Positions 6,363 to 28,549 of a stretch of 64,000 nt of DNA are shown here, in pieces. Under the pieces are notes generated by a model, which was not told the DNA's origin, did not search any database, and saw nothing but the letters and a program-made list of their open reading frames with translations. The translations under genes and the position numbers were made by a program. Positions within the stretch are counted from its first letter, which is position 1. Every line of letters begins with the position of its first letter. The DNA is from an uncultured Pseudomonadales bacterium (GTDB taxonomy: Bacteria; Patescibacteriota; Microgenomatia; UBA1400; PJMF01): positions 648 to 64,647 of the forward strand of contig CAZCXA010000002.1 of NCBI GenBank assembly GCA_964502565.1, given 5' to 3'.

Positions 6363-6443
6363 CAAACTAAAAAAATCAAGCAATGCTATAATAAAGTTAT
6401 CATAAAATTAAAGTTCGTCATTTTTTCATTTTAAACTCTTATC

Positions 6444-7310
6444 ATGTCCATCACTATTTTTAGCCAGGATAAACAAAAAAAACAAGACAGTAATCTGGAA
6501 GAAACGACCGAGCACGCTTCTGAAAATATCTCGAACAACACCTTTCTTGAAGAAAAAACCTTGGATGATTTTAACAGTGATACAAACATTTCTACTGAGA
6601 GAACCGATGATTCCTTACCACCCGCTGAGATTATTAAAGAAACTCTTAATCTAGAAAATGAGCTGAAAGAAACCTCTGAGGCTGAGATAAGAAACAATAT
6701 TAATAAAGCCAACAGTCTTTCCCACACTATCAAACAAGAACGCTCAACTCGTAAAAACCTAGTGTCGTTTGCTCCCAAGCCAATTAGAGCCAAGTTTGAC
6801 TCTCAAATGAAGGATGAGACGATTATCTTGATGCTTAGACAGCATCCGATTACACAACTGGGCAAAGTCCTGATTATTATCATCGGAATATTTTTCCCGA
6901 TTTTTCTTTTGACAACACATATTTTAGAATTTTTACAACTAAACTATAAAATCGCAGCAATTATAGGTTGGTTTTTATTATTATCTGGTTTTACTTTAGA
7001 AACATTCTTAAACTGGTACTTCCATGTTTTTTTTATTACCGACCGCAGAGTTATTGATGTTGATTTTGAGTCAATGATTTATAAAGATGTTTCAACAGCC
7101 AAGTTAGAAAATATTCAGGATGTAAGTTTTATTACCACCGGGACTTTAGCCTCATTGGTTGATTATGGGACAGTCTTTTTACAAACAGCTGGCTCTCAAG
7201 CTAGAATAGAGTTTGAAACTGTGCCTCATCCCGCAAAGGTGGTTAAGATTATTAATGAGTTAATTGCCCAAACAAGAAGAGGAACATATCAAAAACGAAG
7301 AATGGGTTAA
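6444..7310 (+). CDS. Membrane protein with acidic disordered N-terminus and a bacterial PH-like (YdbT/bPH_2-like) domain
   Basis: Two TM helices followed by ...FFITDRRVIDVDF...TVFLQTAG, resembling membrane-proximal bPH_2 domains. Similarity judged by eye. Confidence 0.4.
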   Translation: MSITIFSQDKQKKQDSNLEETTEHASENISNNTFLEEKTLDDFNSDTNISTERTDDSLPPAEIIKETLNLENELKETSEAEIRNNINKANSLSHTIKQERSTRKNLVSFAPKPIRAKFDSQMKDETIILMLRQHPITQLGKVLIIIIGIFFPIFLLTTHILEFLQLNYKIAAIIGWFLLLSGFTLETFLNWYFHVFFITDRRVIDVDFESMIYKDVSTAKLENIQDVSFITTGTLASLVDYGTVFLQTAGSQARIEFETVPHPAKVVKIINELIAQTRRGTYQKRRMG

Positions 7311-7416
7311 AAATATTAATCAAGCAAAAAAAACTTTTACATCATTTTATTAAAGAAGATAAAAGTGAAAAAAGCTCAGGAAATAATTTGCCGGTTTTTA
7401 ATTTTCACTACTTAAT

Positions 7417-7665
7417 ATGAACGACTTTAACTCAATCCTTGTCATTGATAACTTCGACCTCGGTAAAATTATTCACTTGGTTGAAAAGTCTTTTTTTATC
7501 ATCGGGATCTTGCTTTATCTCATTTTTGCAATCGTGGTAGTGCGCCAAATATCAATCATGAAGAAAACAATTATTACTGATCTTTTGCCCACCATTACCT
7601 TACTGGGTTTAGCTCACTTAATCCTCACCGTTATTGTGCTTGTTGGCTTTTTACTGTTTTTATAA
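7417..7665 (+). CDS. Small hypothetical membrane protein (2 TM)
   Basis: 82-aa ORF, hydrophobic, no recognisable motif. Confidence 0.3.
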   Translation: MNDFNSILVIDNFDLGKIIHLVEKSFFIIGILLYLIFAIVVVRQISIMKKTIITDLLPTITLLGLAHLILTVIVLVGFLLFL

Positions 7666-7727
7666 TTTTTTTACGGTTGAAGATCCTCACCGCTAACTAA
7701 AGCCTGCCACAAAAAAAGCGCTTTATT

Positions 7728-7841
7728 CTGGCCTCGACCTATCTTCACACTCAGTCTCCCGAGTATTATTGTCAGCGCTAAGGCGTTTCAAGACTCTGTT
7801 CGGAATGGGAAGAGTTGGTTCCACCTCGCTCCAGAGACCAG
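7728..7841 (-). rRNA. rrf: 5S ribosomal RNA
   Basis: Reverse complement contains ...CCCATTCCGAACAGAG...GTGAAACGCCTTAGCGCTGA...GGGAGACTGAGTG..., matching the 5S core. Flanked by a processing-stem inverted repeat aaaagcgctttattctgg / ccagaataaaacgctttt. Confidence 0.8.
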
Positions 7842-8285
7842 AATAAAACGCTTTTAATTTTTAAAGTGAATCTTTACATTTTACAATAGCGTCCGAAGTA
7901 AGTCTTGCTTCAGCCAGACAACAAGGTAGCTATGAAAAATGTAAAAAATGTTCACTCTGTAACAAGTGAAGAAAACAAGGCTTCAATAGAACAAGTAAAT
8001 TCAATTAAATGTGTTCAGTCGACGATTAGTACAGCTAGGCTTAGTATCTCACGATACTTACACCGGCTGTCTATCAACGTGGTGGTCTACCACGTGTCTA
8101 ATGGAGATGATTAATCTTGGAGAAGGTTTCTCGCTTAGATGCTTCCAGCGATTATCCCGTAGGAATGTAGCTACCCTGCGCTGCCCTTGACAGGGACAAC
8201 AGGAACACTAGGGATTCCCTCACTTTGGTCCTCTCGTACTGAGAGCAAAACTCCTCAATCATCTAACGCTGACGGCGGATAGAGG

Positions 8286-8325
<40 letters not shown>

Positions 8326-8382
8326 GCTTTAATTGGCGAACAGACAAACCCTTGGGACCTTCTACAGCCCCAGGATGCGATG

Positions 8383-8681
8383 CACATACTCCACTATTAC
8401 TAGCGGTGTAGACTATATCATCATCCAACTTTGTTAAAAGTTGGAGTTCGGCGTATTATAAAAAGCCTTATTTTAATCATCAAATAACTGATAATTAATG
8501 CTTTCTATCTTCGTCTTTAATCAAGATTAAAGACTCCAGTCGTTACAGGGTCAATCCAGTTAATTAAATTAATAGGACGACTTCCCACGGTATTGCCCTC
8601 AAACCCAGATTTGGTGTAGGGGTTCACCGTTATAAGCCGAATTTAGCCTTTTAGATCTCTCTAAAAGGGGCCCTTCATTTG
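8383..8681 (-). other. Candidate group I intron / IVS (299 nt, no ORF) in 23S at the E. coli ~2593 site (GGCU|CAUC)
   Basis: An AT-rich block interrupts the conserved sequence GTCGGCT|CATCGCATCCTGGGGCTG. The 5' exon ends in U and the insert ends in G, as group I introns do. Without the insert the rRNA length is normal. Confidence 0.45.
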
Positions 8682-9253
8682 AGCCGACATCGAGGTAGCA
8701 AACCACGCCGACGCTAGGGACGCTTAGGCGTGATAACTCTGTTATCCCCAGGGTAGCTTTTATCCGATAAGCCCGGCACCTTCCACAAAGTGCACGGGGA
8801 TCACTATAACCTGCTTTCGCATCTGCTTGGCTCGTATGCCTCACAGTTAAGCACCCATATGCTATTGCACTTACAGCCTGATTTCCATCCAGACTAAGGG
8901 TACCATTGCGCGCTTGCGTTACCTTTTAGCAAGCAACCTCCCCAGTTAAACTATCCACCTGACATTGTTCCTGACCAAGTTTGCATTGGCCTTAGGTTAG
9001 ATGCTCTATAGAAAACGAGTGGTATTACATTGTTGAACTATGCCCAAGGCATAACTCTCCCACCTATTCTAGACAATCTTATATAAAGCACCAGTGTCAA
9101 GCTATAGTAAAGCTCCATGGGGTCTTATTGTCCTGCCGTCAGTAGACCGCATCTTTACGGCCATTTCAATTTCACCGAGTACCAGTTCAAGACAGTATTC
9201 CGCTCGTTAAACCTTTCGTGCGCGTCACCAATTAAGTGACAAGGTACTTCGCT

Positions 9254-9673
9254 CATAAATTCTATAATTTAGAATCCGGTTGTTATTTTATATTTCTATA
9301 AAAGTATGATCGATTTACATACACTCATAGTCGCCTATGAGATCGGACTATCTCTTCTCTTAATCAAGAGCTTGACGTATAGTCTCTGAGGATTTCTAAT
9401 CAAGTTAATATCCCAACTCATGTAGGTTTTATTTAAACCTTGATGAGTCTTAAATAGATCTTTCCTTGAGTAGATCTTTCCTGCTGATTGTCTGCACTTG
9501 AGTCATTTTTACGCAAAGTTATTATTGTTAATATATGTTGCTATCTAATTTATATTGCTAAACTAAACCTCAGCTTAAGCATCTTTAGCCTAAACATCTT
9601 AAATAAATTACGTAGATCAAGATTCTCAGATTTTCCAGCATATAGTCAAGTTTTACTAAGGCAACGAGTACTT
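9254..9673 (-). other. Candidate group I intron / IVS (420 nt, no ORF) in 23S at the E. coli ~1931 site (CTAAGGU|AGCGAA)
   Basis: A roughly 60%-AT insert lies between CTATAACTGTTCTAAGGT and AGCGAAGTACCTTGTC, both conserved relative to E. coli 1915-1950. The 5' exon ends in U and the insert ends in G. The longest internal ORF is 67 aa. Confidence 0.5.
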
Positions 9674-11203
9674 ACCTTAGAACAGTTATAGTTACTGCTG
9701 CCGTTCACCGGGGCTTAAGTCGCAAGCCTTAACCGAAGTTAAAACCCGCTTCCATGACCTTCCGGCACCGGGCAGGTATCAGCCCGTATACTTCCTCTTT
9801 CGAGTTTGCACAGACCTATGTTTTTGTTAAACAGTCGACGGAACATCTTTTGCTGTGCCCATCCTCTGCTTGCGCTTTGGATGGGAGGGCATCTCTCTAG
9901 ATTACGCCCAGCTATCTTGCCGAGTTCCTTAAACTGGCTTCTCTCGCTCTCCTTGGTCTACTCGACCTGTCCACCAGTGTCGGTTTTAAGTACGAATAAA
10001 CTTGATTCTCACTGCGAAAATTTTCCAGGATGCAGAACTCACGTTTAATCAGTCGCACCGAAGTTTGACTAATCCTATAACACCTCGCTTACTTCCCTTA
10101 CGGGGGGTTTGTTCAAGCGGATTTGCCTACTTGAACTAGCTGAGTGATTTGACCAAGACTTCACATCTTGATAAACGCTATCCCGCATCGTCCTTCCCCA
10201 GTTAATAATGAATCAAGCTTAGAACCGGAATGTTGACCGGTAATCCATCGGCTACCCCTGCTTTTGCAGGGCTGACCTTAGGGTCGCCTAACCCGCACAC
10301 GACGAACGTGGGTGCGGAAACCTTGGACATTCGGAGTTGAAGATTCTCACTTCAATGACGCTACTTATGCCAGCATTCTCACTTCTGATCACTCCAGCAG
10401 CTCCTTACGGGCCACCTTCAAAGCACACAGAACGCTCCCTTACCACTCATTCTAGTAAACTAGAACGAATCCTAAGCTTCGGTTAAACATTTGAGCCTCG
10501 TTAAATTTTCGGCGCATAAATCCTACGGCTAGTGAGCTGTTACGCTTTCTTTAAAGGATGGCTGCTTCTGAGCCGACCTCCTAGTTGTCTTAGGATCTAA
10601 ACTTCCTTTACCACTAAACATTTATTTAGAGACCTTAGCTGTGGGTCTGGATTGTTGCCCTGTTTGCTCACGGAACTTAGCTTCCGCGTGCTGAGTGCCA
10701 TGCCAGAATTGATGGTATTCGGAGTTTAACTAGACGCTGGAAGTTTCCTTCCGGACGCCCGATCAGTGCTCTACCCCCATCAATCTATAACATGACCCTA
10801 TACCTAAATATATTTCGGGGAGAACCAGCTAGCTCCAGGTTCGATTAGCATATTACCCCTATCCACAATTCATCCGAGACTCTTGCAGCAGTCACCGGTG
10901 CGGCCTTTCCCACATCTTTCGATATGGTGCAGCCTGATCATGGATAGCTCACCTGGATTCGGGTCGTTGAGTAACTACTTGCGCCCTATTCAGGCACGGT
11001 TCCTGTTGTTCAAAGAACAACAAAAACACTCGCTTTCACTACGGCTACGAGATGAGAATCTCTTAGCCTAGCAGTTACCCAACACTCGCCGGCTCATTCT
11101 TCAATAGGCACGAGATTACCCGCAATCCCGCAAAGCGGGACGAGGCTTTCTCTGTTTGTTAGTAGAAAGTTTCAGATACTCTTTCATCGGGTTTTCCACC
11201 CTT

Positions 11204-11243
<40 letters not shown>

Positions 11244-11995
11244 TTGTTTGGTATTTAGCCTTGGAGTGTGGTCACCCCAGCTTAAAACGGGAGTTTGCCG
11301 TCTCCCATCCTATTCAGGAATCTCTCTAGATTGTTTTGGATTTTGCGTACACGACTTTCACGCTCTTTGGTCACTAATTCCATAGTGTTCTGCTATCCGC
11401 CACTCTCACATGTGAGAGTCCTACAACCCCCCTGTAAACAGGGGTTTGGGCTGTTCCCGGTTCGCTCATCGCTTACTAAGGGAATCTCTTACGATTTTTT
11501 TTCCTCCGGGTACTAAGATATTTCAGTTCCCCGACTTACCCCCGTGCCGTAAACGGCACAGTCATCTTGCTCTCACAAGATGGGGTTTCCCCATTCGGAC
11601 ACCGACGGGTTATGTGCTTTTTGCCAGCTAACCGTCGACTTTCGCGGGCTATACGTCCTTCATCGGCCAAACAAGCCTAGGCATTCGCTTTCTACGTTAG
11701 TTCACACAAGTTTAGTTAGACCCAAGGGTCTAACAAGATATTGAATTTGAAATTGAACTATTTTGACGATGTTTTCTTCACATGTTAAAGAGCGAAAGGA
11801 TGTTTTCATCTCTCGCAGTAGCCTCGCTGTCTGATTCTGTCAGACGCGCGTTGAAAACTGTTCAAGATGTTAAACATTCCTTATATTCAGTAATCTTTTA
11901 ACCGGTTCATTTTATTTTTTTCAAGCAACTTCCAAACATTTCTGATTTGCTAACCAAAAAGCAAGGTGTTACAAGAGACAATAAAAAGAACCCTG

Positions 11996-12069
11996 TGGAC
12001 CTGGGGAGACTCGAACTCCCGGTCTCTTCGTTGCAAACGAAGCGCTTTAGCCAACTAAGCCACAGGCCC
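11996..12069 (-). tRNA. tRNA-Ala (anticodon UGC)
   Basis: Reverse complement is GGGCCTGTGGCTTAGTTGGCTAAAGCGCTTCGTTTGCAACGAAGAGACCGGGAGTTCGAGTCTCCCCAGGTCCA. It forms a cloverleaf with anticodon loop UUUGCAA and the G3:U70 Ala identity pair. No CCA is encoded. It sits in the spacer upstream of the 23S. Confidence 0.9.
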
Positions 12070-16794: not shown

Positions 16795-18015
16795 ATGAAC
16801 ATTGCCCAAAAATCTTCCACCCCTGTTGCAGGCTCATCATCTACCGCAAACACTGGCTATAACCCACCCACAGGTTTTAATCAGCCTAAGCCGGCCACCA
16901 CACATGAGGCCGCCCATTTAACTCAGCCTAAAAAAAGTTTTGCTTTTCAAAGTTTAGAAGAAAGACAAGCGAGACAAGAACAAGGTGAGCAGATGCAACC
17001 AGAGCCGGTAGACAAACTGCAAGGATCTGGAACCGCATTTAATCCTCCTGGTGGAACACCTCCTAGTACTGTTCCAACTGTCGAAAACAAACCACCCATG
17101 CCAGACAAGCTTGAATCAAAAACAAAAAAAACTTCAGTAATTATGTTGGTTGTGGCGTTCGTCTTTATGCTCCTTACTGGAGCTGGATTGTTTTACATAA
17201 CTCAAATTTTACCTGAACAAGAAGTGCCAACCGCCCCGGTCTCAGAGCCAGCAGCAGCTCCAGTAACACCTGGAGCCGAGAGTGCTCAAGTTTGTTCTTT
17301 AGTATTTTCACTCCAGACACCAACTGATGGGCCAGAAACCACCCCAACGCCAACTGATGGGCCAGAAACCACCCCAACACCAACTTCTACTCCAACGCCC
17401 ACTTCTACTCCAACACCAACTTCTACTCCAACACCAACTGATGGGCCAGAAACTACTCCATCCCCAACTGATGGGCCAGAAACCACCCCAACGCCAACTT
17501 CTACTCCAACGCCAACTTCTACTCCAACGCCCACTTCTACTCCATCCCCAACTGATGGGCCAGAAACTACACCAGGAGTCACTGCAACAACAACACCAAC
17601 TGATGAACCGACCACAGCACCAGAAGTGACCGTAACAACCACATCAGCGCCTGAACAGCCGACCACAACCACGACTACCACATCACCGTCTCACACAACC
17701 ACAACTGTCTTGGCACCAACCACCCCTCCAGCTCAACCAGCCCAAACAGTTACAAAAATTGTAGATACTCAAGCTGACTGTAATCAAGCCTGTTCTACCA
17801 ATGCAGACTGTCGCAATATTAGCCATATTTGCTACAACAGTCGTTGTCGGTTAGATATCAATCCTGAAGATGACCAATGCCGTACCCCAGCTGGTGAAAC
17901 CACTGTGGAACGAGTGGTTGAACAACCGGTGGCAGGATTTAGCAACTGGATCAACTTTTTAAGAATTGGTATCGGTGCAATCGGAACTGGTTTGCTTCTA
18001 CTATTACTACTATAA
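16795..18015 (+). CDS. Pro/Thr-repeat surface protein with a Cys-rich C-terminal module and C-terminal hydrophobic anchor
   Basis: Internal TM around residues 120-140. Repeats PTDGPETTPT and PTSTPT. A 6-Cys cluster DCNQACSTNADCRNISHICYNSRCRLD. Ends in ...GTGLLLLLLL. Confidence 0.6.
   Translation: MNIAQKSSTPVAGSSSTANTGYNPPTGFNQPKPATTHEAAHLTQPKKSFAFQSLEERQARQEQGEQMQPEPVDKLQGSGTAFNPPGGTPPSTVPTVENKPPMPDKLESKTKKTSVIMLVVAFVFMLLTGAGLFYITQILPEQEVPTAPVSEPAAAPVTPGAESAQVCSLVFSLQTPTDGPETTPTPTDGPETTPTPTSTPTPTSTPTPTSTPTPTDGPETTPSPTDGPETTPTPTSTPTPTSTPTPTSTPSPTDGPETTPGVTATTTPTDEPTTAPEVTVTTTSAPEQPTTTTTTTSPSHTTTTVLAPTTPPAQPAQTVTKIVDTQADCNQACSTNADCRNISHICYNSRCRLDINPEDDQCRTPAGETTVERVVEQPVAGFSNWINFLRIGIGAIGTGLLLLLLL
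17310..17580 (+). repeat. Coding tandem repeats (30-bp PTDGPETTPT units and 18-bp PTSTPT units)
   Basis: Direct reading shows ccaactgatgggccagaaaccaccccaacg x4 and ccaacttctactccaacgcc x6. These generate the spurious antisense ORFs in the track. Confidence 0.8.
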
Positions 18016-18086: not shown

Positions 18087-18160
18087 GCGCGCGTAGCTCA
18101 ATCGGTTAGAGCACCAAGCTTATACCTTGGCGGTTCTTGGTTCGAGTCCAAGCGCGCGCA
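18087..18160 (+). tRNA. tRNA-Ile (anticodon UAU)
   Basis: GCGCGCGTAGCTCAATCGGTTAGAGCACCAAGCTTATACCTTGGCGGTTCTTGGTTCGAGTCCAAGCGCGCGCA. Seven-bp acceptor stem, anticodon loop CUUAUAC (U33, anticodon UAU, A37), T-loop TTCGAGT. No CCA encoded. Confidence 0.75.
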
Positions 18161-18251
18161 CTTTTTTTGTTTTTTAGCCTAGAAAATCGCAAATTTTAGC
18201 AATAGAGACACTTTTCTAAGTAAAATCTTTTTCTCTTTGCTAAAAACAATT

Positions 18252-18326
18252 ATGGCAATGCCAATTCTAGGGATTCCCATGTCTTTATTTATAAGCCAGA
18301 AACAATCTTATTGTATAATACATTAA
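18252..18326 (+). CDS. 24-codon ORF immediately upstream of the radical SAM gene (MAMPILGIPMSLFISQKQSYCIIH); speculative leader or precursor peptide
   Basis: ATG at 18252, stop at 18324-18326, 4 nt before the rSAM ATG. There is no other support, so it may be chance. Confidence 0.1.
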   Translation: MAMPILGIPMSLFISQKQSYCIIH

Positions 18327-18330
18327 AAAT

Positions 18331-19746
18331 ATGCCAGAAAAATTTAATTATATTAAACCAGAGTCAAATCGAAAAGAAAGCGATCTCATGTTAATTAATA
18401 GTCCGCTTTCTTTTTCAAGTGATGGTCTGGAAAAAGAATTGGAGCCCTCCTTCGGTCAACTAAGAATAGTAGCAGTTTTAGAAAAACACGGATTAAAGCC
18501 TAGCCTTTTAGATCTGTGTAGACATCCTTTGAGTCCTGAAGATATCGAAAACGTACTCTTCAATGCCTCCCCTAAAATGGTTGGTTTAAATCCAACATCC
18601 ATAAACATTGGACCTAGCCAAATAATAGCCGAAATATGTAAAAAATTAAAAATCCCGTTAATTATAGGTGGTGTCCACTCCACTCTTGACCCCAAGCAGA
18701 CCCTACACGAGTACTTTCCAGATGCTCAGATCGCTGTAAGGGGTAAAGGAGAGTATGCCGTTTTGAAAATTGTGAATGATACTTTATTGGGTAAAAAACC
18801 TCAGGGAAAGGGTGTCTACTACACCGATAGTGATTTTTCTAGAACTGATTATGGTGAATGCTATCCTTTAAGGGATATTCCAACTATCGATCAATTTAGA
18901 TATATCGAAAATCCGCTAATTGAAAAAGAAATTAATTTTGATGGAAAAAGGGAAATGAAGGGTGTCTACTACACCGATAGTGATTTTTCTAGAACTGATT
19001 ATGGTGAATGCTATCCTTTAAGGGATATTCCAACTATCGATCAATTTAGATATATCGAAAATCCGCTAATTGAAAAAGAAATTAATTTTGATGGAAAAAG
19101 GGAAATGATTAGAGAAATATCGCTATATGTGACCGCAGGTTGTCCATTTGATTGTGCGTTTTGCTCAACTCCAGTTTTGGTAGGAAAAAAATATGGAGAA
19201 AGACCATTCTTTCATCCTGGAGTTGAAAAAATAATGAAGGATATCGACTATGCAGTAGCGCATGGAGCGAATGCTGTTCATTTTTTAGACGACATGGCAA
19301 TCACCAATCAGCGTCAGCTTACGGCATTTTATCATGGCATTCAAGACATGGGAATTGCTGATGATTTTTATTGGAGAGGCATGACGAGAGCACCAATTAT
19401 TGCCAATCAATTCCAAGATCAAGACTTAAAAAATCTGCATGATTCCGGATGTTGGAGGCTGGCTATGGGAGTTGAGAGCGGAAATCAAGAGATGCTTGAT
19501 AAAATTAGAAAAGGTATTACTAAAGATCAGGTTAGGATTGCTGTATATAAACTAAAAAATTCTGGGATTTCGCAAGTTAAAGCTTTTTTTATAATGGGTT
19601 TCCCAGATGAAACCAATGAGCAGCTCATTGAGACCTACAATTTTATTATGGAACTGAAAGAATTAGGTTTAACAGACATTAGTTTGTTCCAGTTCAAACC
19701 ATATCCAGGAACAGAATTGTGGGAAAAAATGAAAATGGAAAAGTAA
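18331..19746 (+). CDS. B12-binding (class B) radical SAM enzyme carrying an internal 50-aa perfect duplication
   Basis: N-terminal Rossmann-like cobalamin-binding region (...IPLIIGGVHSTLDP...). Radical SAM cluster motif CPFDCAFC. An exact in-frame 150-bp tandem duplication lies at 18808-19107. Confidence 0.75.
   Translation: MPEKFNYIKPESNRKESDLMLINSPLSFSSDGLEKELEPSFGQLRIVAVLEKHGLKPSLLDLCRHPLSPEDIENVLFNASPKMVGLNPTSINIGPSQIIAEICKKLKIPLIIGGVHSTLDPKQTLHEYFPDAQIAVRGKGEYAVLKIVNDTLLGKKPQGKGVYYTDSDFSRTDYGECYPLRDIPTIDQFRYIENPLIEKEINFDGKREMKGVYYTDSDFSRTDYGECYPLRDIPTIDQFRYIENPLIEKEINFDGKREMIREISLYVTAGCPFDCAFCSTPVLVGKKYGERPFFHPGVEKIMKDIDYAVAHGANAVHFLDDMAITNQRQLTAFYHGIQDMGIADDFYWRGMTRAPIIANQFQDQDLKNLHDSGCWRLAMGVESGNQEMLDKIRKGITKDQVRIAVYKLKNSGISQVKAFFIMGFPDETNEQLIETYNFIMELKELGLTDISLFQFKPYPGTELWEKMKMEK
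18808..19107 (+). repeat. Perfect 2 x 150-bp tandem duplication inside the radical SAM CDS
   Basis: aagggtgtctactacaccgatagtg...gatggaaaaagggaaatg is repeated identically, giving KGVYYTDSDFSRTDYGECYPLRDIPTIDQFRYIENPLIEKEINFDGKREM twice. Confidence 0.9.
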
Positions 19747-19903
19747 GATGTATTGGAAAGAGTTAATTTTTCTCATAGTTCTTACGACTCAGAGAAAGAG
19801 ATAGTTAAGCAAAAACTGGGAGTAGACGCTTCCTTACCGGAGGACTTACAAATAGCAGAAATTTCGAGTGGAGAAGTGAGAAATTTAATAATAAAAACCT
19901 TGA

Positions 19904-20305
19904 ATGATTTTTATGCCTAAAAAAGTATTCATTTCATATTCATACAAAAAAAGAGAGCAATTCCAAAATATGGATTTAGAGATTAAAAAAGCTTTAACCA
20001 GAATTGGCTTTGAAGGTTATTCTTTCGTTTTCGATCAGCATTTAAAATTCAAGAATGATCAAGAAATGATGGTTAAAGTATTGGGGAAGATTGATGAATG
20101 CGACATTCTAATTGCAGAGCTTAGTGATAAACAAGTCGGAATTGGATTGGAAGTTGGATACGCAAAAGCGAAAAATAAAAGAATTATTTATATAAAAAGG
20201 ATAGATGCGGCCTACTCAACTACAGTTGGCGGGGTGGCCGACGATATCATTGATTATAAAAATTGTACTGACTTAATTAAAAAAATTGTTACGAAGTTGC
20301 TATAG
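19904..20305 (+). CDS. Small flavodoxin-fold protein, nucleoside 2-deoxyribosyltransferase-like / TIR-like (DUF1863-like)
   Basis: N-terminal KVFISYSYKK (TIR-like start). Motif CDILIAELSDKQVGIGLEVGYAKAKNKRIIYI resembles the NDT-family catalytic-Glu motif G-x-G-x-E-x-G-Y-A. Confidence 0.5.
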   Translation: MIFMPKKVFISYSYKKREQFQNMDLEIKKALTRIGFEGYSFVFDQHLKFKNDQEMMVKVLGKIDECDILIAELSDKQVGIGLEVGYAKAKNKRIIYIKRIDAAYSTTVGGVADDIIDYKNCTDLIKKIVTKLL

Positions 20306-20329
20306 TAAAATATGTCCGAAGTTCGATCG

Positions 20330-20445
20330 CGAGCTTTCACTTTTTTTGAAACGACGAGGTTGCTAGACACTTGCTAGACACAACGAACACACTTTTTTGA
20401 AACGACGAGGTTGCTAAACACAACGCGCGCACCTTTTTATTTTTA
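20330..20445 (+). repeat. Intergenic direct repeats: two ~33-bp copies of cac(t)ttttttgaaacgacgaggttgcta(g/a)acac, plus ttgctagacac x2
   Basis: Read directly at 20338-20370 and 20388-20421. Followed by cgcgcgcacctttttatttt, which resembles the 3' end and trailer of tRNA-Ile at 18153-18175. Confidence 0.6.
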
Positions 20446-20494
20446 AACCTTAATCCATAATTGCTACTTTTGCTTATATTTCTATTTCTCAACT

Positions 20495-21580
20495 ATGCTA
20501 AACAAGCTCTCATCTTTTATCAAAAAACGCCATAAATTCATACTCCTAGCACTAATGATTGCGGTTGTTGCAATCTTTTTTGTTTGCCAAGAACACTCTC
20601 AGCAACCTGATCAAAACTTTGAACATCCTCAATATCGCGATATTGCTCAAACTTTAGATATTTCTGGTCAAGTAGATGCCAAACGTCGCGCGCGCCTGCG
20701 TTTTCTTGCCGGTGGCAAAATTACCTACCTAGGAGCTCAAGAGGGCGACTGGGTAAAACAATGGCAAACAATTGCCAATATTGATCAACGTGATTTGCAA
20801 AAAAGACTGGAAAAATCTCTTAATTTATATATGCAACAGCGCTGGGATTGGGAAGATTTACAAGACAATATTAAAGATGAGATTCTTGATACCTCAGAAC
20901 AACGCTATGTTGACAAACAACAATGGAACCTTAGTAACACTGTTCTGGATGTAGAGATTCAAGACATTGCTGTTTCTCAAGCCTCAATGTCTGCTCCCTT
21001 TGCTGGTATCTTGGTTTACCAACCGGTTAATAGCACTCACACCCAAGTCACAGCTAATGATTTTTTCGAGGTTGTTGATCCTCGGTCCTTAATCTTCAGA
21101 GCCGAGATCAATGAGGAAGATATAGCCTTAGTTTCAGTTAACCAATCGGCCAAGATTGCACTTGACGCTTACCCAAATGAAACATTATTTACTCAGGTTA
21201 GTTATATTGCTTATGTCAGCACTCAAACAACCGGTGGTAATATTTTTTATGTTGAGTTTCCGCTCGTTGTTGAAGGGGAAGGTGTGGACGCCATAGGTAA
21301 TACTGATTCTTACAATCAAGAAATCGGTAAAAACTTGCTTAATAAGTATCGCCTTGGCTTAAATGGTGAGGTTTTAATCGAGTTGGAAAGCAAATCAAAC
21401 GTCTTAACTATTCCCTTGATTGCCACCAAGTTCAGGGATGATGATGTTTTTGTAGATGTGCGCAATGACAGCGGTCTAGTTGAAGAACGAAAAGTTGAGA
21501 TTGGCCTTGAGTCAGATGAGTATGCTGAGATAATTTCTGGATTATCTGAATCAGATTTAGTGTTAATTCCAAAAATTTAA
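20495..21580 (+). CDS. HlyD-family periplasmic adaptor subunit (MacA-like)
   Basis: N-terminal TM, a long coiled coil, then a beta-rich C-terminal domain. Immediately upstream of the ABC ATPase and FtsX permease. Confidence 0.7.
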   Translation: MLNKLSSFIKKRHKFILLALMIAVVAIFFVCQEHSQQPDQNFEHPQYRDIAQTLDISGQVDAKRRARLRFLAGGKITYLGAQEGDWVKQWQTIANIDQRDLQKRLEKSLNLYMQQRWDWEDLQDNIKDEILDTSEQRYVDKQQWNLSNTVLDVEIQDIAVSQASMSAPFAGILVYQPVNSTHTQVTANDFFEVVDPRSLIFRAEINEEDIALVSVNQSAKIALDAYPNETLFTQVSYIAYVSTQTTGGNIFYVEFPLVVEGEGVDAIGNTDSYNQEIGKNLLNKYRLGLNGEVLIELESKSNVLTIPLIATKFRDDDVFVDVRNDSGLVEERKVEIGLESDEYAEIISGLSESDLVLIPKI

Positions 21581-21583
21581 GAG

Positions 21584-22348
21584 GTGCTGGCCCATTTCAG
21601 GCCCAGCCAAACTACAATGAAAAAAAAAGCTAACAAGATGGCGAACTCCCAACCCGTGCTTAAACTTGATAATGTTTGCAAAAGTTATCAACTGGGTACG
21701 CAACTCATTCGCGCCTTAGAATGCATTGACTTTACTATTAATGAAGGGGAGTTTGTGGCAGTAATCGGCCCTTCAGGCTCAGGCAAGTCAACTTTTTTGC
21801 AGGTGGCCAGCATGTTAGCTGAACCATCACAAGGTAAGATATTTCTCAAGGGTCAGGATGTGACTAGTTATAATGAAGTACAAAGAGCTCGTTTGCGCAA
21901 CCAAGAGATCGGGTTTATTTTTCAACAGTTTAACTTACTAGCTAGAACCAGCGCGCTTGACAATGTGGCCTTACCTTTGGTTTACGCTGGAGTTGAGATG
22001 TCTGAAAGGCATCAAAGAGCTGAGAGTTTGTTAAAAAAAGTTGGACTGGGAGATCGACTAAAAAACAAGCCTAACGAGCTCTCTGGCGGTCAACAACAAA
22101 GGGTGGCCATTGCTCGTGCCTTGATTAATGATCCCAGTATTATTTTTGCTGATGAGCCGACCGGTAACCTAGATTCAAAAACCAACAAGGAAGTTATGGG
22201 TTTATTACAACAGTTACATAAAGATGGTAGGACCATTATTTTGGTGACTCATGAACTTAACTTAGCAAAAACCGCACAAAGGATTATTACTTTGCGTGAT
22301 GGCCAACTATTAGCTGAATACAAGCCACCTTATAAATTTAAAGATTAA
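21584..22348 (+). CDS. ABC transporter ATP-binding protein (MacB/LolD-type); true start probably ATG 21617 or 21638
   Basis: Walker A GPSGSGKST, signature LSGGQQQRVAIARAL, Walker B IIFADEPT. Confidence 0.9.
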   Translation: MLAHFRPSQTTMKKKANKMANSQPVLKLDNVCKSYQLGTQLIRALECIDFTINEGEFVAVIGPSGSGKSTFLQVASMLAEPSQGKIFLKGQDVTSYNEVQRARLRNQEIGFIFQQFNLLARTSALDNVALPLVYAGVEMSERHQRAESLLKKVGLGDRLKNKPNELSGGQQQRVAIARALINDPSIIFADEPTGNLDSKTNKEVMGLLQQLHKDGRTIILVTHELNLAKTAQRIITLRDGQLLAEYKPPYKFKD

Positions 22349-22377
22349 AAACTAAAGGACTCCAATATCTTTCGCGC

Positions 22378-23592
22378 ATGAATTTTACCAACACTTTAGC
22401 CATCGCCATTAAAGCCATCTTTACCAATAAGGTTAGAAGCGCCTTGACAATGTTGGGGGTAATTATTGGTGTGAGTTCGGTTGTTATGTTAATTTCTTTA
22501 GGCAAGGGTTTGGAAGCCTTTGTTGTCCAATCTTTTGAAGATTTGGGCTCAAACAATATTTATATCACGCCAGGCAATCTGTTTAGTGAAGAAGGCGGTT
22601 TTAGCTCGATTCAAAACTCGGCACTGCGTGCTAAATCGTTCAGTTTTGATAAAACTGATGTTAAAGAGTTGCGCCGATTACGCCAATATGTTGAAAAGGT
22701 TGCTTATTATAATGCTCAATCTGACACGATTCGTTTTTTAACCAATACTAAACAAACCAGCATTATCGGCAGTAATGCTGACTACAATCAGGTTTTAATT
22801 ACAAGTTTAAATAAAGGACGCTGGTTTACCAACAGTGAGGATGAAAACGGAGAACGGGTGGTGGTGCTAGGTCATGAGGTTGCAGATGAGTTGTTTGGTA
22901 AAGTAGATCCTCTGAGTAAAAAAGTCAGAATCGGTGCTGTTACCTTTACCGTAGTCGGTGTGGCTGAAAAAAAGGGCGGTGGTTTTGGTGGGCCATCTTT
23001 TGATAATGTTATTTATATTCCCTTTGAAACTCTGTCTAGAATTTACAACACCAATGACATTATGGATATGACTGTTAAAAGTAGGGGTGATATAGAAATT
23101 GCCGACGCCATTACTGCTGTTGAAGCAAACATGCTAAAACGTTACAAAGATGATGAGTTTTCTGCATATGATCAAACTGAGATATTAAATGTTATTCAAG
23201 ATATACTAAGCATGATTACAATTACTCTGGGAGGGATTGCAGCCATCTCACTTTTGGTCGGAGGAATTGGTATTATGAACATTATGCTGGTGTCGGTTAC
23301 AGAGAGAACTAAAGAGATTGGTTTACGTAAAGCCCTGGGAGCAACTCCTAACCAAATCTTAATTCAATTTTTAATCGAGGCTGCTTTCTTGTCGATCCTA
23401 GGCGGTGTGATTGGTTTAGGTCTAGCCTTTGTTGGGTCTTTGGCTGTTCAGCCAATATTTCCAGCTAAAGTGACTATAGAATCTGTGTTGTTGGCGTTTG
23501 GAGTATCAACCGCGGTTGGGTTAATCTTTGGCGCTGCCCCTGCAAGCAGGGCATCGCGCTTATCACCGATCGAGGCGTTGAGATATGAATAA
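22378..23592 (+). CDS. ABC transporter permease (FtsX/MacB-type, 4 TM with a large periplasmic domain)
   Basis: MacB-like topology. C-terminal FtsX-like region ...GGIGIMNIMLVSVTERTKEIGLRKALGA... Confidence 0.85.
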   Translation: MNFTNTLAIAIKAIFTNKVRSALTMLGVIIGVSSVVMLISLGKGLEAFVVQSFEDLGSNNIYITPGNLFSEEGGFSSIQNSALRAKSFSFDKTDVKELRRLRQYVEKVAYYNAQSDTIRFLTNTKQTSIIGSNADYNQVLITSLNKGRWFTNSEDENGERVVVLGHEVADELFGKVDPLSKKVRIGAVTFTVVGVAEKKGGGFGGPSFDNVIYIPFETLSRIYNTNDIMDMTVKSRGDIEIADAITAVEANMLKRYKDDEFSAYDQTEILNVIQDILSMITITLGGIAAISLLVGGIGIMNIMLVSVTERTKEIGLRKALGATPNQILIQFLIEAAFLSILGGVIGLGLAFVGSLAVQPIFPAKVTIESVLLAFGVSTAVGLIFGAAPASRASRLSPIEALRYE

Positions 23593-25793: not shown

Positions 25794-26120
25794 CTAGGTT
25801 GTGAGATCTATCTCAAAAAATAACTTCATTAACTGATCTCCGAACTTGGTGAGTCTATAATAAACCCTTTGACCATGTTTTTTATCAACCACTAGATTAG
25901 CCTCTCTTAAATCAGCTAAATGATGCGAGATTAAACTCTGCTCAAGTTTAACGATTGGTTGGAGCGCGCTTACACAAAGCTCCTGTTGACGTAGTAAACA
26001 CATTAACTTGAGTCGATTTTTTTCCGCAACTATCTTAAACAATGAAGACAACTCGTTCATTTTGTTGCAGGCGCACTCGTTTTTAGGATAAGTACAAAAG
26101 TCGCATGAATCCATATTCAT
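25794..26120 (-). CDS. ArsR/SmtB-family transcriptional regulator with a Cys-rich N-terminus
   Basis: HTH region LCVSALQPIVKLEQSLISHHLADLREANLVVDKKHGQRVYYRL. N-terminal CDFCTYPKNECAC. Confidence 0.7.
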   Translation of the reverse strand: MNMDSCDFCTYPKNECACNKMNELSSLFKIVAEKNRLKLMCLLRQQELCVSALQPIVKLEQSLISHHLADLREANLVVDKKHGQRVYYRLTKFGDQLMKLFFEIDLTT

Positions 26121-26206: not shown

Positions 26207-28549
26207 CTACAACCTTGCTCTCACTGCCATCTCTGCCTCGATCACCTCTTTATCCTTACCATACTTTAACCGAGACAGCTCTCTAATCATCTCAGCCAAC
26301 TTCGGATTCATCTGCGCCTCGATCTTTGCAATATCTTTTTCCAAAGACACGCTAAAGGGAGTCATTGGCTCATTGTCTACAATGGTCTTCATGTACACAT
26401 GGTATTTTTCAACATTGGTGAGGTCGGTCTCGGTAAAAACAGGCGTGAACTCATGTTGCAAAAAGTTGGCATCGGTGACACCAATTCGAAACGAAACCAT
26501 GGTGCCCACGTTGCCAAAGACAGCATTTTTTACATCTTCATCAATCTGACCAATATATTGATTAGCTACAATTAAGTTAAGCTTGTACTTGCGAGCCTCT
26601 GATAAAATCACAGCAAAATCTTCTGTGGCATAGTTTTGAAACTCATCAACATATAAGAAAAAATCTTCGCGTTTTTCCATGGGCATATCAGCTCTACTCA
26701 TGGCAGCAGTCAAGATTTTAGGCACCAAGATCAAACCCAAAAACTTAGCATCTTCCTCGCCCAACACACCTTTGGATAAATTACACAGCAAGATCTTTTT
26801 TTCATCCATTGCTTTTCTAAAATTAAACGCGCTTTTGGGCTGACCAATAATATTTCGCATGGTTTTGTTGGTCACAAATCGACCAAACTTGGACACAATG
26901 TAATCCAATACCTCAGACTTATGGAAATCACTGGTTTGAGCGATTTGGTCGGTCCAGTAACGCTTTACCACCGGGTCTTTAATATAAGGCAAGGTTTCTA
27001 CAACAAAGTTTTCATCAGTTATAATACGTACCACCTCAATAAAGGTGGAGTTTTCTCGACTCATCACCGATAACATGGCATTACGAATCGCGTGCTCAAA
27101 ACGCGGACCAATAATACCGGTCCGATGCGGATCATATAACTTATACATCAAGTTAATAATCGAGCTCACCACAAAATGTTGCTCCTGTTCTGAATAAGCC
27201 TCCATAATATTTAAGCCCATGGGACGTTCTCTATCAGAAGGATTAAAATAGATCACATCCTCGGCTCTCTCAGGAGGCATCAGCTCTAAAATATCTTCAA
27301 CAAAATCACCGTGAGGATCGATCGCGGCCACACCCTTACCTTCTTCAATATCCTGCAAGATCATCTGCTTTAAAAACTCTGATTTTCCAGTACCGGTTTT
27401 ACCAACAATATACATGTGGCGTCGGCGATCATTTAACTTCATATACACCTTGCGTCGCTCGCCTCGATAATAAGACTCACCAATAAATAAACCCTCGTCA
27501 GGAATTTCTTGAGGCGCTGGGGCATTTTTAGCGGTCAGCCACTTAATGTGGTGGGTCTCAACGGTTTTGTTGGGAAAATGAAAAACGGTTGCCAACTCTG
27601 CCGTGCTTAAGATGCTTGTTTTGAACTTAAACAAAGGCATATATCGATAGATAAAATCAATCACAAACAGATGCTTGATCAAAACCTTGGTTTTTTTAAA
27701 CTTGTTGTAGGCGGAGGTAAACTGAGCAAAAGCACCGGTTATATTTCCTAAGTGAGTTTCTGCCTCGTCATTTGTAGAAGCAGATACCACTATCCTGATA
27801 GAGGTACGAAAGCCTGGATGCGACACCTGATCACTAATAGCCTCCATTTCCTTAGGATCATGGTCATAACTTGCTTTCTCTGGATCAGCCTCTTTTTTCT
27901 TTTTTTCAGTAATATAAGAACGGCCTTTTTTTTGCCACTTACCTGGCACTGGTTGAATTAAAATCTGCAAAACCCCGCCTTCTGTTTCTCGCATTTTGGA
28001 CATGGCAGTGGTGATTAAAGACATACCATCAGTGGGCAAATCTTTGTAAATCTCTGCTGGATGATAATCCGCACTATCTTTTTTTAAACTTGCAAAGGCG
28101 ACTCGACCGTCTTCATTAAAAATATTAACCTCATCAACTTCTTTAATATATGCCTGGGGATAAGCGCCGTTAATCTGCTTCTCAACATGATCTTGAATCT
28201 TGCGCGAACAACTCACATAAAAAGCAATCTCTTCTTTTAAAGCCACGATCTCGAACGCCACAATATCCTGCGATCTAGTTAAAGAAAAACCACTTTTATT
28301 AAGTGAGTAAAGCCCAGCAAACATCTGCTCGGCTGCATCGATTTTAATCTCATTATCTTTGGGCAGTTTTACTAATAAAGTGACAAAACTGAGAGCATAA
28401 TCTTGACGTTTACGATTTTTAAGCCACTGTAAAATCATGTAGGTGAAGGCTACTAAAATAGCCAACAAAACCACACCCAAGATTAAACTAAATAAAATCA
28501 CGGTGAGTTGTGAGATGAGTTGGTTAGAAGCTTCGGTGGTGATCTGCAT
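26207..28549 (-). CDS. Membrane-anchored T4SS coupling-protein-like ATPase (VirD4/TraG/TraD family) with an unusual ~330-aa N-terminal domain
   Basis: N-terminal TM. Walker A GKTGTGKS. Walker B region FFLYVDEFQNY. Overall TraG/VirD4-like C-terminal ATPase. Confidence 0.55.
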   Translation of the reverse strand: MQITTEASNQLISQLTVILFSLILGVVLLAILVAFTYMILQWLKNRKRQDYALSFVTLLVKLPKDNEIKIDAAEQMFAGLYSLNKSGFSLTRSQDIVAFEIVALKEEIAFYVSCSRKIQDHVEKQINGAYPQAYIKEVDEVNIFNEDGRVAFASLKKDSADYHPAEIYKDLPTDGMSLITTAMSKMRETEGGVLQILIQPVPGKWQKKGRSYITEKKKKEADPEKASYDHDPKEMEAISDQVSHPGFRTSIRIVVSASTNDEAETHLGNITGAFAQFTSAYNKFKKTKVLIKHLFVIDFIYRYMPLFKFKTSILSTAELATVFHFPNKTVETHHIKWLTAKNAPAPQEIPDEGLFIGESYYRGERRKVYMKLNDRRRHMYIVGKTGTGKSEFLKQMILQDIEEGKGVAAIDPHGDFVEDILELMPPERAEDVIYFNPSDRERPMGLNIMEAYSEQEQHFVVSSIINLMYKLYDPHRTGIIGPRFEHAIRNAMLSVMSRENSTFIEVVRIITDENFVVETLPYIKDPVVKRYWTDQIAQTSDFHKSEVLDYIVSKFGRFVTNKTMRNIIGQPKSAFNFRKAMDEKKILLCNLSKGVLGEEDAKFLGLILVPKILTAAMSRADMPMEKREDFFLYVDEFQNYATEDFAVILSEARKYKLNLIVANQYIGQIDEDVKNAVFGNVGTMVSFRIGVTDANFLQHEFTPVFTETDLTNVEKYHVYMKTIVDNEPMTPFSVSLEKDIAKIEAQMNPKLAEMIRELSRLKYGKDKEVIEAEMAVRARL

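Follow-up and report, generated by a model that had tools for sequence, protein, structure and literature searches.

A segment of 2.27 kb that holds just two genes appears to have been inserted at the 3' end of the tRNA-Ile(UAU) gene in an uncultured member of the Patescibacteria (GenBank assembly GCA_964502565.1, contig CAZCXA010000002.1). We analyzed 64,000 nt of this contig (positions 648 to 64,647, read on the forward strand), referred to here as the window and numbered from its first nucleotide; its features lie on the plus strand unless stated otherwise. The two genes encode a radical S-adenosylmethionine (SAM) enzyme of the class B type (hereafter rSAM) and a protein of 133 amino acids with the predicted fold of nucleoside 2-deoxyribosyltransferases (NDT) and DNPH1. 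The explanation that we favor, and consider probable, is that a conserved pair of rSAM and nucleoside-5'-monophosphate (NMP) N-glycosidase-like genes, with a role in the nucleotide pool, was inserted at this tRNA, that the rSAM has since decayed in this genome, and that the exporter genes downstream are unrelated to the pair.

Sister genomes were found using the HlyD protein encoded downstream of the pair as query, and their contigs were compared with the window. In five sister lineages, with HlyD identities of 78, 72, 66, 62, and 61%, the distance from tRNA-Ile(UAU) to HlyD is 58, 76, 41, 185, and 37 nt, respectively, and no gene lies between the two. The tRNA precedes HlyD at 7885-7959 in L029, 1262-1338 in L031, 4739-4815 in L115, and 4889-4963 in L116, while in L032 only its 3' end is present. 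In L029 and L115, synteny with the window extends upstream (S1 protein, PGK, Pro/Thr-rich protein) as well as downstream (ABC, MacB, small genes, HTH_5, DUF87 ATPase). Because all five sisters have tRNA-Ile(UAU) directly before the HlyD-ABC-MacB genes, the segment with the rSAM and the NDT-like gene, from approximately 18162 to 20432, is identified by this comparison as an insertion. The target tRNA is intact (18087-18160; ARAGORN, and Rfam RF00005 at 72.3 bits), and the borders of the island enclose exactly the rSAM and the gene for the 133-aa protein.

These borders are marked by an imperfect direct repeat of about 30 nt (18149-18180 against 20421-20450; local alignment score 30, reached in 0 of 2000 shuffles). 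The left, attL-like copy is composed of the last 12 nt of the tRNA and its T-rich trailer, CAAGCGCGCGCACTTTTTTTGTTTTTTAGCCT, and the right, attR-like copy reads CAACGCGCGCACCTTTTTATTTTTAAACCT. The nine-nucleotide core, CGCGCGCAC, which represents the last bases of the tRNA, occurs twice on the two strands of the 64 kb where 0.04 occurrences are expected, and none of 100 shuffles contained it twice or more. Its second copy, at 20424-20432, ends 62 nt 5' of the HlyD start codon, a spacing that falls within the range of 37-185 nt between tRNA and HlyD in the sisters. GC content is 0.32-0.38 in the island versus 0.39-0.45 in the flanks. The distal end also carries a tandem pair of units, 51 and 40 nt long (20342-20432; repeat search, families D4 and D5), with the pattern TTTTTTGAAACGACGAGGTTGCTArACAC...AACGnnCnCAC. 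Each unit ends in a copy of the repeat core, the first of them degenerate, as could have resulted from accretion or slippage at an att site. The units are found in all contigs of the same species and are absent from the spacers of the sisters.

The initial annotation of this stretch had proposed a tRNA-linked element with an att-like repeat and a lost integrase, and had suggested comparing sister genomes at tRNA-Ile. Both ideas were borne out: the direct repeat is significant, and the element is missing from precisely this site in the five sisters, where the tRNA is followed by HlyD after 37-185 nt. No integrase or recombinase gene was found, since the element contains only the rSAM, its severed tail, and the NDT-like gene, and the flanking genes are syntenic residents. 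A transposon-like insertion was also considered and rejected, as terminal inverted repeats are lacking (521 of 2000 shuffles reached the observed score). The locus is most similar to tRNA-targeted genomic islands and to integrase-less remnants resembling cis-mobilizable elements (CIMEs), with which it shares the tRNA 3' end as a site, a repeat that rebuilds the tRNA end, absence from sister genomes, and a lower GC content. It differs from them in its small size of 2.27 kb with two genes, the lack of an integrase, the core of 9 nt, and the tandem units of 40-51 nt at its distal end.

The two genes of the insertion are found together well beyond this genome. Homologues of the rSAM gave 18 distinct loci, and a further 80 metagenome loci were collected from the side of the 133-aa protein. 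The NDT-like gene adjoins the rSAM in 13 of the 18 loci and is its only recurrent neighbor; within the close subfamily it is located directly 3' of the rSAM in all loci, usually with overlapping stop and start codons, as in the window. Viewed from the NDT-like side, the closest relatives (51-53% identity) with enough upstream sequence follow an rSAM. Gene order in these loci indicates that the rSAM and the 133-aa protein form one operon that recurs across Patescibacteria. A tRNA is not a conserved part of this arrangement, with no flanking tRNA in L010-L012 and only unrelated tRNAs near L013, L015, and L036.

The wider neighborhood of the family is rich in predicted nucleotide enzymes. Genes touching rSAMs of the 40%-identity subfamily include Maf (L019 and L026; in L107 it follows the NDT-like gene), Ham1 (L020), and, overlapping the stop codon of the rSAM, a gene for a MazG-like pyrophosphohydrolase (L023), and the rSAM also neighbors an adenylate-kinase-like gene (L026), AAA_17 kinase-like genes (L020, L021), and a thymidine kinase (L021). 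NUDIX genes lie near the rSAM in L010 and L012. In loci that lack the NDT-like gene, it is Maf, MazG, Ham1, NUDIX, or nucleotide kinase genes that flank the rSAM. Proteins of these types handle free nucleotides, mostly non-canonical or deoxy-nucleotides. Inherited synteny alone is unlikely to explain this pattern because the neighbors belong to different families in different loci, and the context of the rSAM family therefore points to a role in the nucleotide pool. The initial annotation had offered a radical SAM and NDT-like N-glycosidase pair acting on nucleotides as its second reading, and this is the one that gains from the 13 loci out of 18 and from the house-cleaning and kinase genes found elsewhere. 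Our full-text literature search found no description of the pair, or of an rSAM from the candidate phyla radiation (CPR) tied to nucleotide genes. The pair is thus undescribed, while both protein superfamilies and this type of island are already known.

The gene for the 133-aa protein (19904-20305) is intact. Its product matches PF05014 with 28.8 bits, exactly the cut-off of 28.8, and its homologues score 21-30 bits. When the family profile was compared with the Protein Data Bank (PDB), Rcl/DNPH1 ranked first (2klh, E 6e-9), followed by BcmB and then NDT. The AlphaFold2 model of the protein has a pLDDT of 97, and its best 50 Foldseek matches are all BcmB (4jen), DNPH1, MilB (4jem), or NDT, the top ones with TM scores of 0.7-0.8 and up to 0.82. 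Within the segment GIGLEVGYA, which follows a G-x-G-x-E-x-G-Y-A motif, residues G79, E83, and G85 show no variation among 60-72 members of the family. The profile alignment places D67 and E83 opposite D69 and E93, the catalytic Asp and Glu of Rcl, and Ser105 opposite Ser117 of Rcl, which binds phosphate. The predicted fold and the catalytic Glu of the NMP N-glycosidases (DNPH1/Rcl, MilB, and BcmB) are therefore both present, and on account of the profile, the catalytic residues, the model, and the Foldseek matches, the protein is best described as a predicted NMP N-glycosidase-like enzyme. The NDT-type catalytic-Glu motif noted previously is accordingly upheld, being invariant in the family and aligned with the Glu of Rcl. 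The TIR-like label given to the N-terminus had to be dropped: the TIR_2 match of 17.5 bits is below the Pfam cut-off of 28, and the best 50 Foldseek matches contain NMP N-glycosidases and NDTs but no TIR domain.

Among characterized enzymes, DNPH1/Rcl is a 2'-deoxynucleoside 5'-phosphate N-hydrolase that serves as a hydrolase of 5-hydroxymethyl-dUMP (hmdUMP). It is the best profile match among solved structures, with the same fold and an aligned Asp, nucleophilic Glu, and distal Ser, and it is a stand-alone nucleotide-sanitizing enzyme, as are most members of the wider 133-aa family by their gene context. Identity is only about 20%, however, and the Ser located six residues before the Glu in Rcl, also a phosphate-binding residue, is not conserved in the family. 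MilA/MilB of mildiomycin and BcmA/BcmB of bacimethrin biosynthesis resemble the pair in the NDT fold, the G-x-G-x-E-x-G motif, and the coupling to a possible nucleotide modifier. They differ in that the partner here is a class-B-type radical SAM protein instead of a ThyA-like hydroxymethylase, that identity is 16-23%, and that the genes reside in CPR genomes with salvage genes around them and no further antibiotic-pathway genes. A comparable two-gene unit, a class B radical SAM enzyme with a nucleotide-hydrolyzing partner, is OxsB/OxsA of oxetanocin A biosynthesis. OxsB, a cobalamin-dependent radical SAM enzyme that acts on free deoxyadenosine nucleotides, is among the sequence and fold matches of the rSAM, but it is a remote relative (E 2e-6) of 744 aa with an extra domain, and OxsA is an HD-domain phosphohydrolase and not an N-glycosidase. 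By analogy, the pair would follow the same logic as MilA/MilB-BcmA/BcmB, in which an NMP is first modified and then loses its base, and OxsB/OxsA, while belonging to neither.

Some rSAM-adjacent NDT-like proteins carry a C-terminal extension of 150-180 aa (L021 4809-5741, L023 4856-5698, P0192, P0200, P0201, P0203, and P0204). These extensions have no Pfam match.

The N-terminal 471 codons of the rSAM (18331-19746, including the stop codon) encode a B12-binding domain (PF02310, 35.5 bits, cut-off 32.1) and a radical SAM domain (PF04055, 69.3 bits). The CxxxCxxC motif is located at GCPFDCAFC, and C221, C225, and C228 are invariant in our alignment of homologues (A2). The fold matches those of TsrM, MgmA, OxsB, and TokK. 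Approximately 90 homologues of at least 35% identity were found, nearly all in Patescibacteria; apart from truncated ones, they measure 470-585 aa. Most homologues at about 45-50% identity have 475-491 aa, with a few shorter, truncated entries, and this group aligns along the whole read-through translation of the window gene. The protein could be assigned to none of the named radical SAM subfamilies (BchE, HpnJ, PhpK, MJ_1487, ApyD, AprD4, and others), as its best NCBIfam match reaches 96.8 bits against a cut-off of 251 and every other match is further below its own cut-off.

The nearest solved relatives of the rSAM, both by sequence (6fd2, E 1e-20; 9ccb, E 3e-18) and by fold (TM 0.59-0.69), are in the group of AprD4, MgmA/QCMT, and TsrM, with 18-21% identity and unrelated substrates; OxsB also counts among the nearest relatives, at about the same identity. 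AprD4 is a radical SAM 1,2-diol dehydratase, and MgmA/QCMT and TsrM are class B methylases. AprD4, the best relative in sequence as well as structure, does not bind cobalamin, and most B12-type radical SAM families are without known function according to a recent review (PMC12931638). Because of the identity of about 18-21% and of AprD4 working without cobalamin, neither reaction type nor cobalamin use is transferable from these relatives. By domain content the rSAM is of the class B type, and it may use cobalamin. Among the outcomes that the initial annotation had listed as speaking against its own proposal, the occurrence of the same genes elsewhere without the tRNA and the want of a conserved precursor were both observed, whereas clustering of the rSAM with methylthiotransferases or rRNA methylases was not.

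A homologue from a Woesearchaeota contig with 30% identity (L117, 2526-7323) is part of two tandem B12-domain radical SAM genes, adjoined by glycosyltransferases and a SPASM radical SAM gene; this cluster is of another kind and may relate to glycans or lipids. The homologue lies outside the nucleotide-linked rSAM family and marks the limit of that family.

In the window, the rSAM frame is interrupted by a TAA codon (19744-19746). This stop, which had gone unnoticed in the initial annotation together with the tail and the duplication described below, replaces a Pro (P422 of the alignment) that is invariant in 19 aligned homologues. Apart from the window, four other contigs from different samples contain this stop. 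The frame of 18331-19743 continues for 57 codons beyond the stop (19747-19920) and overlaps the start of the 133-aa gene by 17 nt, and the 55-codon open reading frame (ORF) at 19753-19920 is the conserved C-terminal tail of the rSAM. The tail matches positions 421-478 of the family profile (E 3.4e-14) and keeps the C-terminal consensus motif LPEDLQIAE..SGEVR...L.DFY. Reassignment of the stop codon was examined and rejected as unlikely, because TAA ends 22 of the 34 long ORFs in the window and is its commonest genuine stop.

Upstream of this stop, the gene contains a perfect tandem duplication of 150 bp (18808-19107; Tandem Repeats Finder, period 150, 2.0 copies, 100% match). It adds 50 codons in frame to the linker and beta-hairpin that immediately precede the Fe-S cluster loop. 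The Logan contigs L004 and L005 both start about k-1 bases short of the point where the second copy ends, and such break points would be expected from a real tandem repeat in a de Bruijn graph. Furthermore, the window rSAM differs from the 90% consensus at 9.1% of the positions, compared with 0-5% within its subclade, of which it is the most divergent member at highly conserved sites. We read the rSAM of the window as recently inactivated, and in this species it is probably non-functional.

Parallel decay of the rSAM beside an intact NDT-like gene was found in other lineages: it is frameshifted in L025, reduced to the C-terminal 96-136 aa in L028 and L107, and missing from L035. The last 55-136 codons of the rSAM persist 5' of an intact NDT-like gene in three independent lineages (L028 6007-6297, L107 639-1049, and the window 19753-19920). 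The surviving tail may hold expression signals for the downstream gene, or may have been kept for another reason.

For the pair as a whole, the proposed function is that it acts on the free nucleotide pool, in salvage or house-cleaning. The rSAM would alter a nucleotide, either by cobalamin-dependent C-methylation, as most class B enzymes do, or by a radical dehydration like that of AprD4. The glycosidase would cleave the base off a modified or deoxy NMP via a covalent intermediate on Glu83, the mechanism of its solved relatives. The glycosidase alone may still be functional in this species and would be the part under selection, as it would be in several other lineages. A more specific version, which we offer tentatively and regard as rather unlikely, is that the rSAM family has a place in the salvage and house-cleaning network on which these bacteria with reduced genomes depend, that it subjects free nucleotides to a new radical reaction there, and that the product is processed or policed by the DNPH1-like glycosidase. 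Candidate reactions would be AprD4-like dehydration of the ribose 2',3'-diol to deoxy- or didehydro-nucleotides, or cobalamin-dependent C-methylation of a pyrimidine nucleotide. The rSAM neighbors are mostly oriented towards deoxynucleotides or pyrimidines, namely thymidine kinase, thymidylate-kinase-like, MazG, Maf, and DNPH1-like genes.

Several observations weigh against our explanation or parts of it. The nucleotide role was deduced from fold, motifs, and gene neighborhood, and both enzymes are predicted ones. Roughly 70 distant NDT-like members (35-45% identity) stand alone in varied contexts with no recurrent partner; the glycosidase is not dependent on the rSAM, and the coupling could be loose. 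Some homologue contigs are labeled as non-CPR (Gammaproteobacteria, Omnitrophota), although mis-binning is suspected. On the side of the insertion, the identical repeat core is short, at 9 nt, and since neither an integrase, an excisionase, nor a circular form was found, the mechanism is deduced from the repeat only. As for the decay, 65 positions are invariant among 19 homologues, and 60 of them, including most of those in the tail, are unchanged in the window rSAM. The stop must then have arisen recently or be tolerated, for instance through re-initiation at the TTG at 19753, which would yield an enzyme in two pieces. In the independent assembly L002 the 150-bp duplication is missing and the rSAM has 421 aa; L002 was assembled with k=141, which is shorter than the 150-bp repeat, and the duplication is either polymorphic or was collapsed by the L002 assembler.

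Two alternatives concern how the genes came to lie where they do. The pair could be ancestral beside tRNA-Ile and deleted in the sister lineages, with the repeat a by-product of local duplication. A single deletion, in an ancestor shared by the sisters, would equally lead to the observed distribution. The repeat and its spacing nevertheless make this unlikely, to the point that we give it very little credence: a copy of the tRNA 3' end and trailer sits precisely at each border of the two-gene unit, and the spacing between the distal copy and HlyD agrees with that between tRNA and HlyD in the sisters. GC content also drops within the segment, and homologous pairs occur in unrelated contexts elsewhere. 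The other alternative, which had been the leading idea of the initial annotation, is a cluster for a ribosomally synthesized and post-translationally modified peptide (RiPP), in which the rSAM would tailor a precursor such as the product of a 24-codon ORF and a MacAB-like pump would export it. Gene order in the window genome does resemble an rSAM followed by an exporter, with an HlyD adaptor (20495-21580), an ABC ATPase (21584/21638-22348; MacB-like), and a MacB_PCD/FtsX permease (22378-23592) in this order by Pfam and NCBIfam, and there is weak NCBIfam similarity to the RiPP radical SAM protein ApyD (70.8 bits, cut-off 750) and to bacteriocin-export ATPases. However, the same HlyD-ABC-MacB genes directly follow tRNA-Ile in the five sister lineages that lack the pair, and neighbor clustering across the 18 loci revealed neither an exporter nor a peptidase recurrent beside it. 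The exporter is thus, judging from the sister loci, an ancestral neighbor of the tRNA rather than cargo. It has the adaptor, ATPase, and permease of MacAB-type tripartite exporters in the same order, but its ATPase and permease are separate genes, and the operon is resident in the clade, with no apparent link to the pair. Among ORFs of 15-90 aa within 1.2 kb of the pair in 13 pair-bearing loci, no precursor-like peptide is shared (leaving aside ORFs common to nearly identical genomes or lying antisense to the start of the rSAM), which answers the precursor scan that had been suggested, and the 24-codon ORF has no counterpart. SPASM and RiPP recognition element (RRE) domains were not found with Pfam and NCBIfam, nor peptidase domains with Pfam, and the rSAM itself is truncated. 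With no other neighbor, tRNA, or small ORF conserved, the RiPP reading is contradicted by every comparative test, and we see next to no chance that it is correct.

Two further alternatives accept the pair and assign it another function. An anti-phage or conflict module, also raised previously, would be a mobile islet in which the rSAM makes a modified or chain-terminating nucleotide in the manner of viperin, or in which the N-glycosidase depletes nucleotides upon infection. Acquisition by insertion at a tRNA, the patchy distribution, and the repeated decay would suit such a module, and so would the nucleotide kinases that adjoin the rSAM, since viperin genes also have nucleotide-kinase neighbors. 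Streptomyces phage SF3 encodes a distant homologue with thymidylate kinase and NUDIX genes 3' of it, and PADLOC matched the rSAM weakly to the candidate PDC-M51A (33 bits). This rSAM match is at the level of generic domains, though, as are the ABC matches in PADLOC, which reflect generic P-loop similarity, and PADLOC returned nothing for the NDT-like glycosidase. No close family member appeared in phage records or IMG/VR viral contigs, where searches found only generic class B radical SAM proteins of 22-28% identity. The neighbors of the family are housekeeping salvage and house-cleaning genes rather than defense genes, and the pair has no conserved sensor or regulator beside it; we consider a defensive function unlikely. 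Alternatively, the NDT-like enzyme could clean up after the rSAM, hydrolyzing its by-products 5'-deoxyadenosine and/or S-adenosylhomocysteine (SAH) in place of a missing methylthioadenosine (MTA)/SAH nucleosidase, whatever the substrate of the rSAM. Such a task would fit the tight coupling with overlapping stop and start codons, the reduced state of CPR genomes, and the fact that 5'-deoxyadenosine inhibits radical SAM enzymes. Against it, the closest structures are all 5'-monophosphate N-glycosidases, Ser/Thr residues of the family align with the phosphate-binding Ser of Rcl, the glycosidase is kept where the rSAM is lost, and most family members have no rSAM neighbor. It would also leave the Maf, MazG, Ham1, and kinase neighbors of the rSAM unexplained, and it seems to us distinctly improbable.

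In phage SF3 (L113; NC_028952.1, 26181-28755), the B12-domain radical SAM protein gp36, 27% identical to the family, is followed by gp37 (thymidylate kinase) and gp38 (NUDIX) with overlapping stops and starts, a possible nucleotide-modification operon of the phage. The phage protein gp35 is not NDT-like, and at 27% identity the likeness is only a parallel.

Patescibacteria lack de novo nucleotide synthesis and live on salvaged nucleotides. If the nucleotide-pool explanation is true, an rSAM conserved in the phylum and wired into nucleotide house-cleaning would be a new piece of their core economy, and the family would be among the very few class-B-type radical SAM enzymes, after OxsB, to be proposed for free nucleotides. 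With roughly 90 sequence clusters, it would make a good target for enzymology. The decayed copy in the window is of lower direct value for this purpose and matters more for the family it reveals; intact rSAM and glycosidase genes exist in other metagenome-assembled genomes (P0012, P0004, P0008, and neighbors). Mobile elements are poorly known in Patescibacteria, and the locus offers a clean, small case in which genes were gained at the 3' end of a tRNA with no integrase resident there, and in which one partner would be decaying after transfer while the other is kept. It also carries a warning for annotation, as a radical SAM gene next to an ABC exporter is here an adjacency made by insertion and no RiPP cluster.

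All features described in the initial annotation were found at or near the positions given there. The 24-codon ATG ORF, MAMPILGIPMSLFISQKQSYCIIH, at 18252-18326 is probably not a gene: it is without counterpart among the small ORFs around the 13 pair-bearing loci, and on our reading of the sequence it overlaps a TATAAT box (18314-18319) located 11 nt 5' of the rSAM start codon. A terminator-like hairpin with a T-run (20318-20347), GAAGTTCGATCGCGAGCTTT followed by CACTTTTTTT, begins 13 nt 3' of the stop codon of the NDT-like gene according to a consensus scan only.

The tRNA-Ile(UAU) is itself conserved at one locus in the window and four sister genomes. In most bacteria AUA is read by a lysidine-modified CAU tRNA together with TilS, and the clade may therefore decode AUA differently.

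Upstream of the tRNA, a Pro/Thr-rich protein of 406 aa (16795-18015) has a Cys-rich segment as well as tandem repeats with a 114-nt period (17310-17574). It carries a C-terminal motif, NWINFLRIGIGAIGTGLLLLLLL, that resembles an anchor or sorting signal and recurs in reading frames of sister genomes just 5' of the tRNA; the sister L029 has two ORFs of 411 and 375 aa (5412-7777) in place of the 406-aa protein. In the region 7726-12069 (minus strand), the 23S rRNA gene spans 3705 nt compared with a model of 2925 nt and includes a group I intron at 8390-8691 (55 bits). It is flanked by 5S and tRNA-Ala genes, no 16S was found in the window, and the rRNA genes appear to be unlinked. The intron and the missing 16S, along with protein relatives that come almost exclusively from Patescibacteria, mark this low-GC genome as CPR-type. 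Downstream of the exporter, a 780-aa DUF8128/DUF87/TrwB-type ATPase (26207-28549, minus strand) and an HTH_5 regulator (25794-26120, minus strand) are syntenic with sister genomes. The ATPase is of a type-IV-secretion or DNA-translocation-like kind typical for these genomes.

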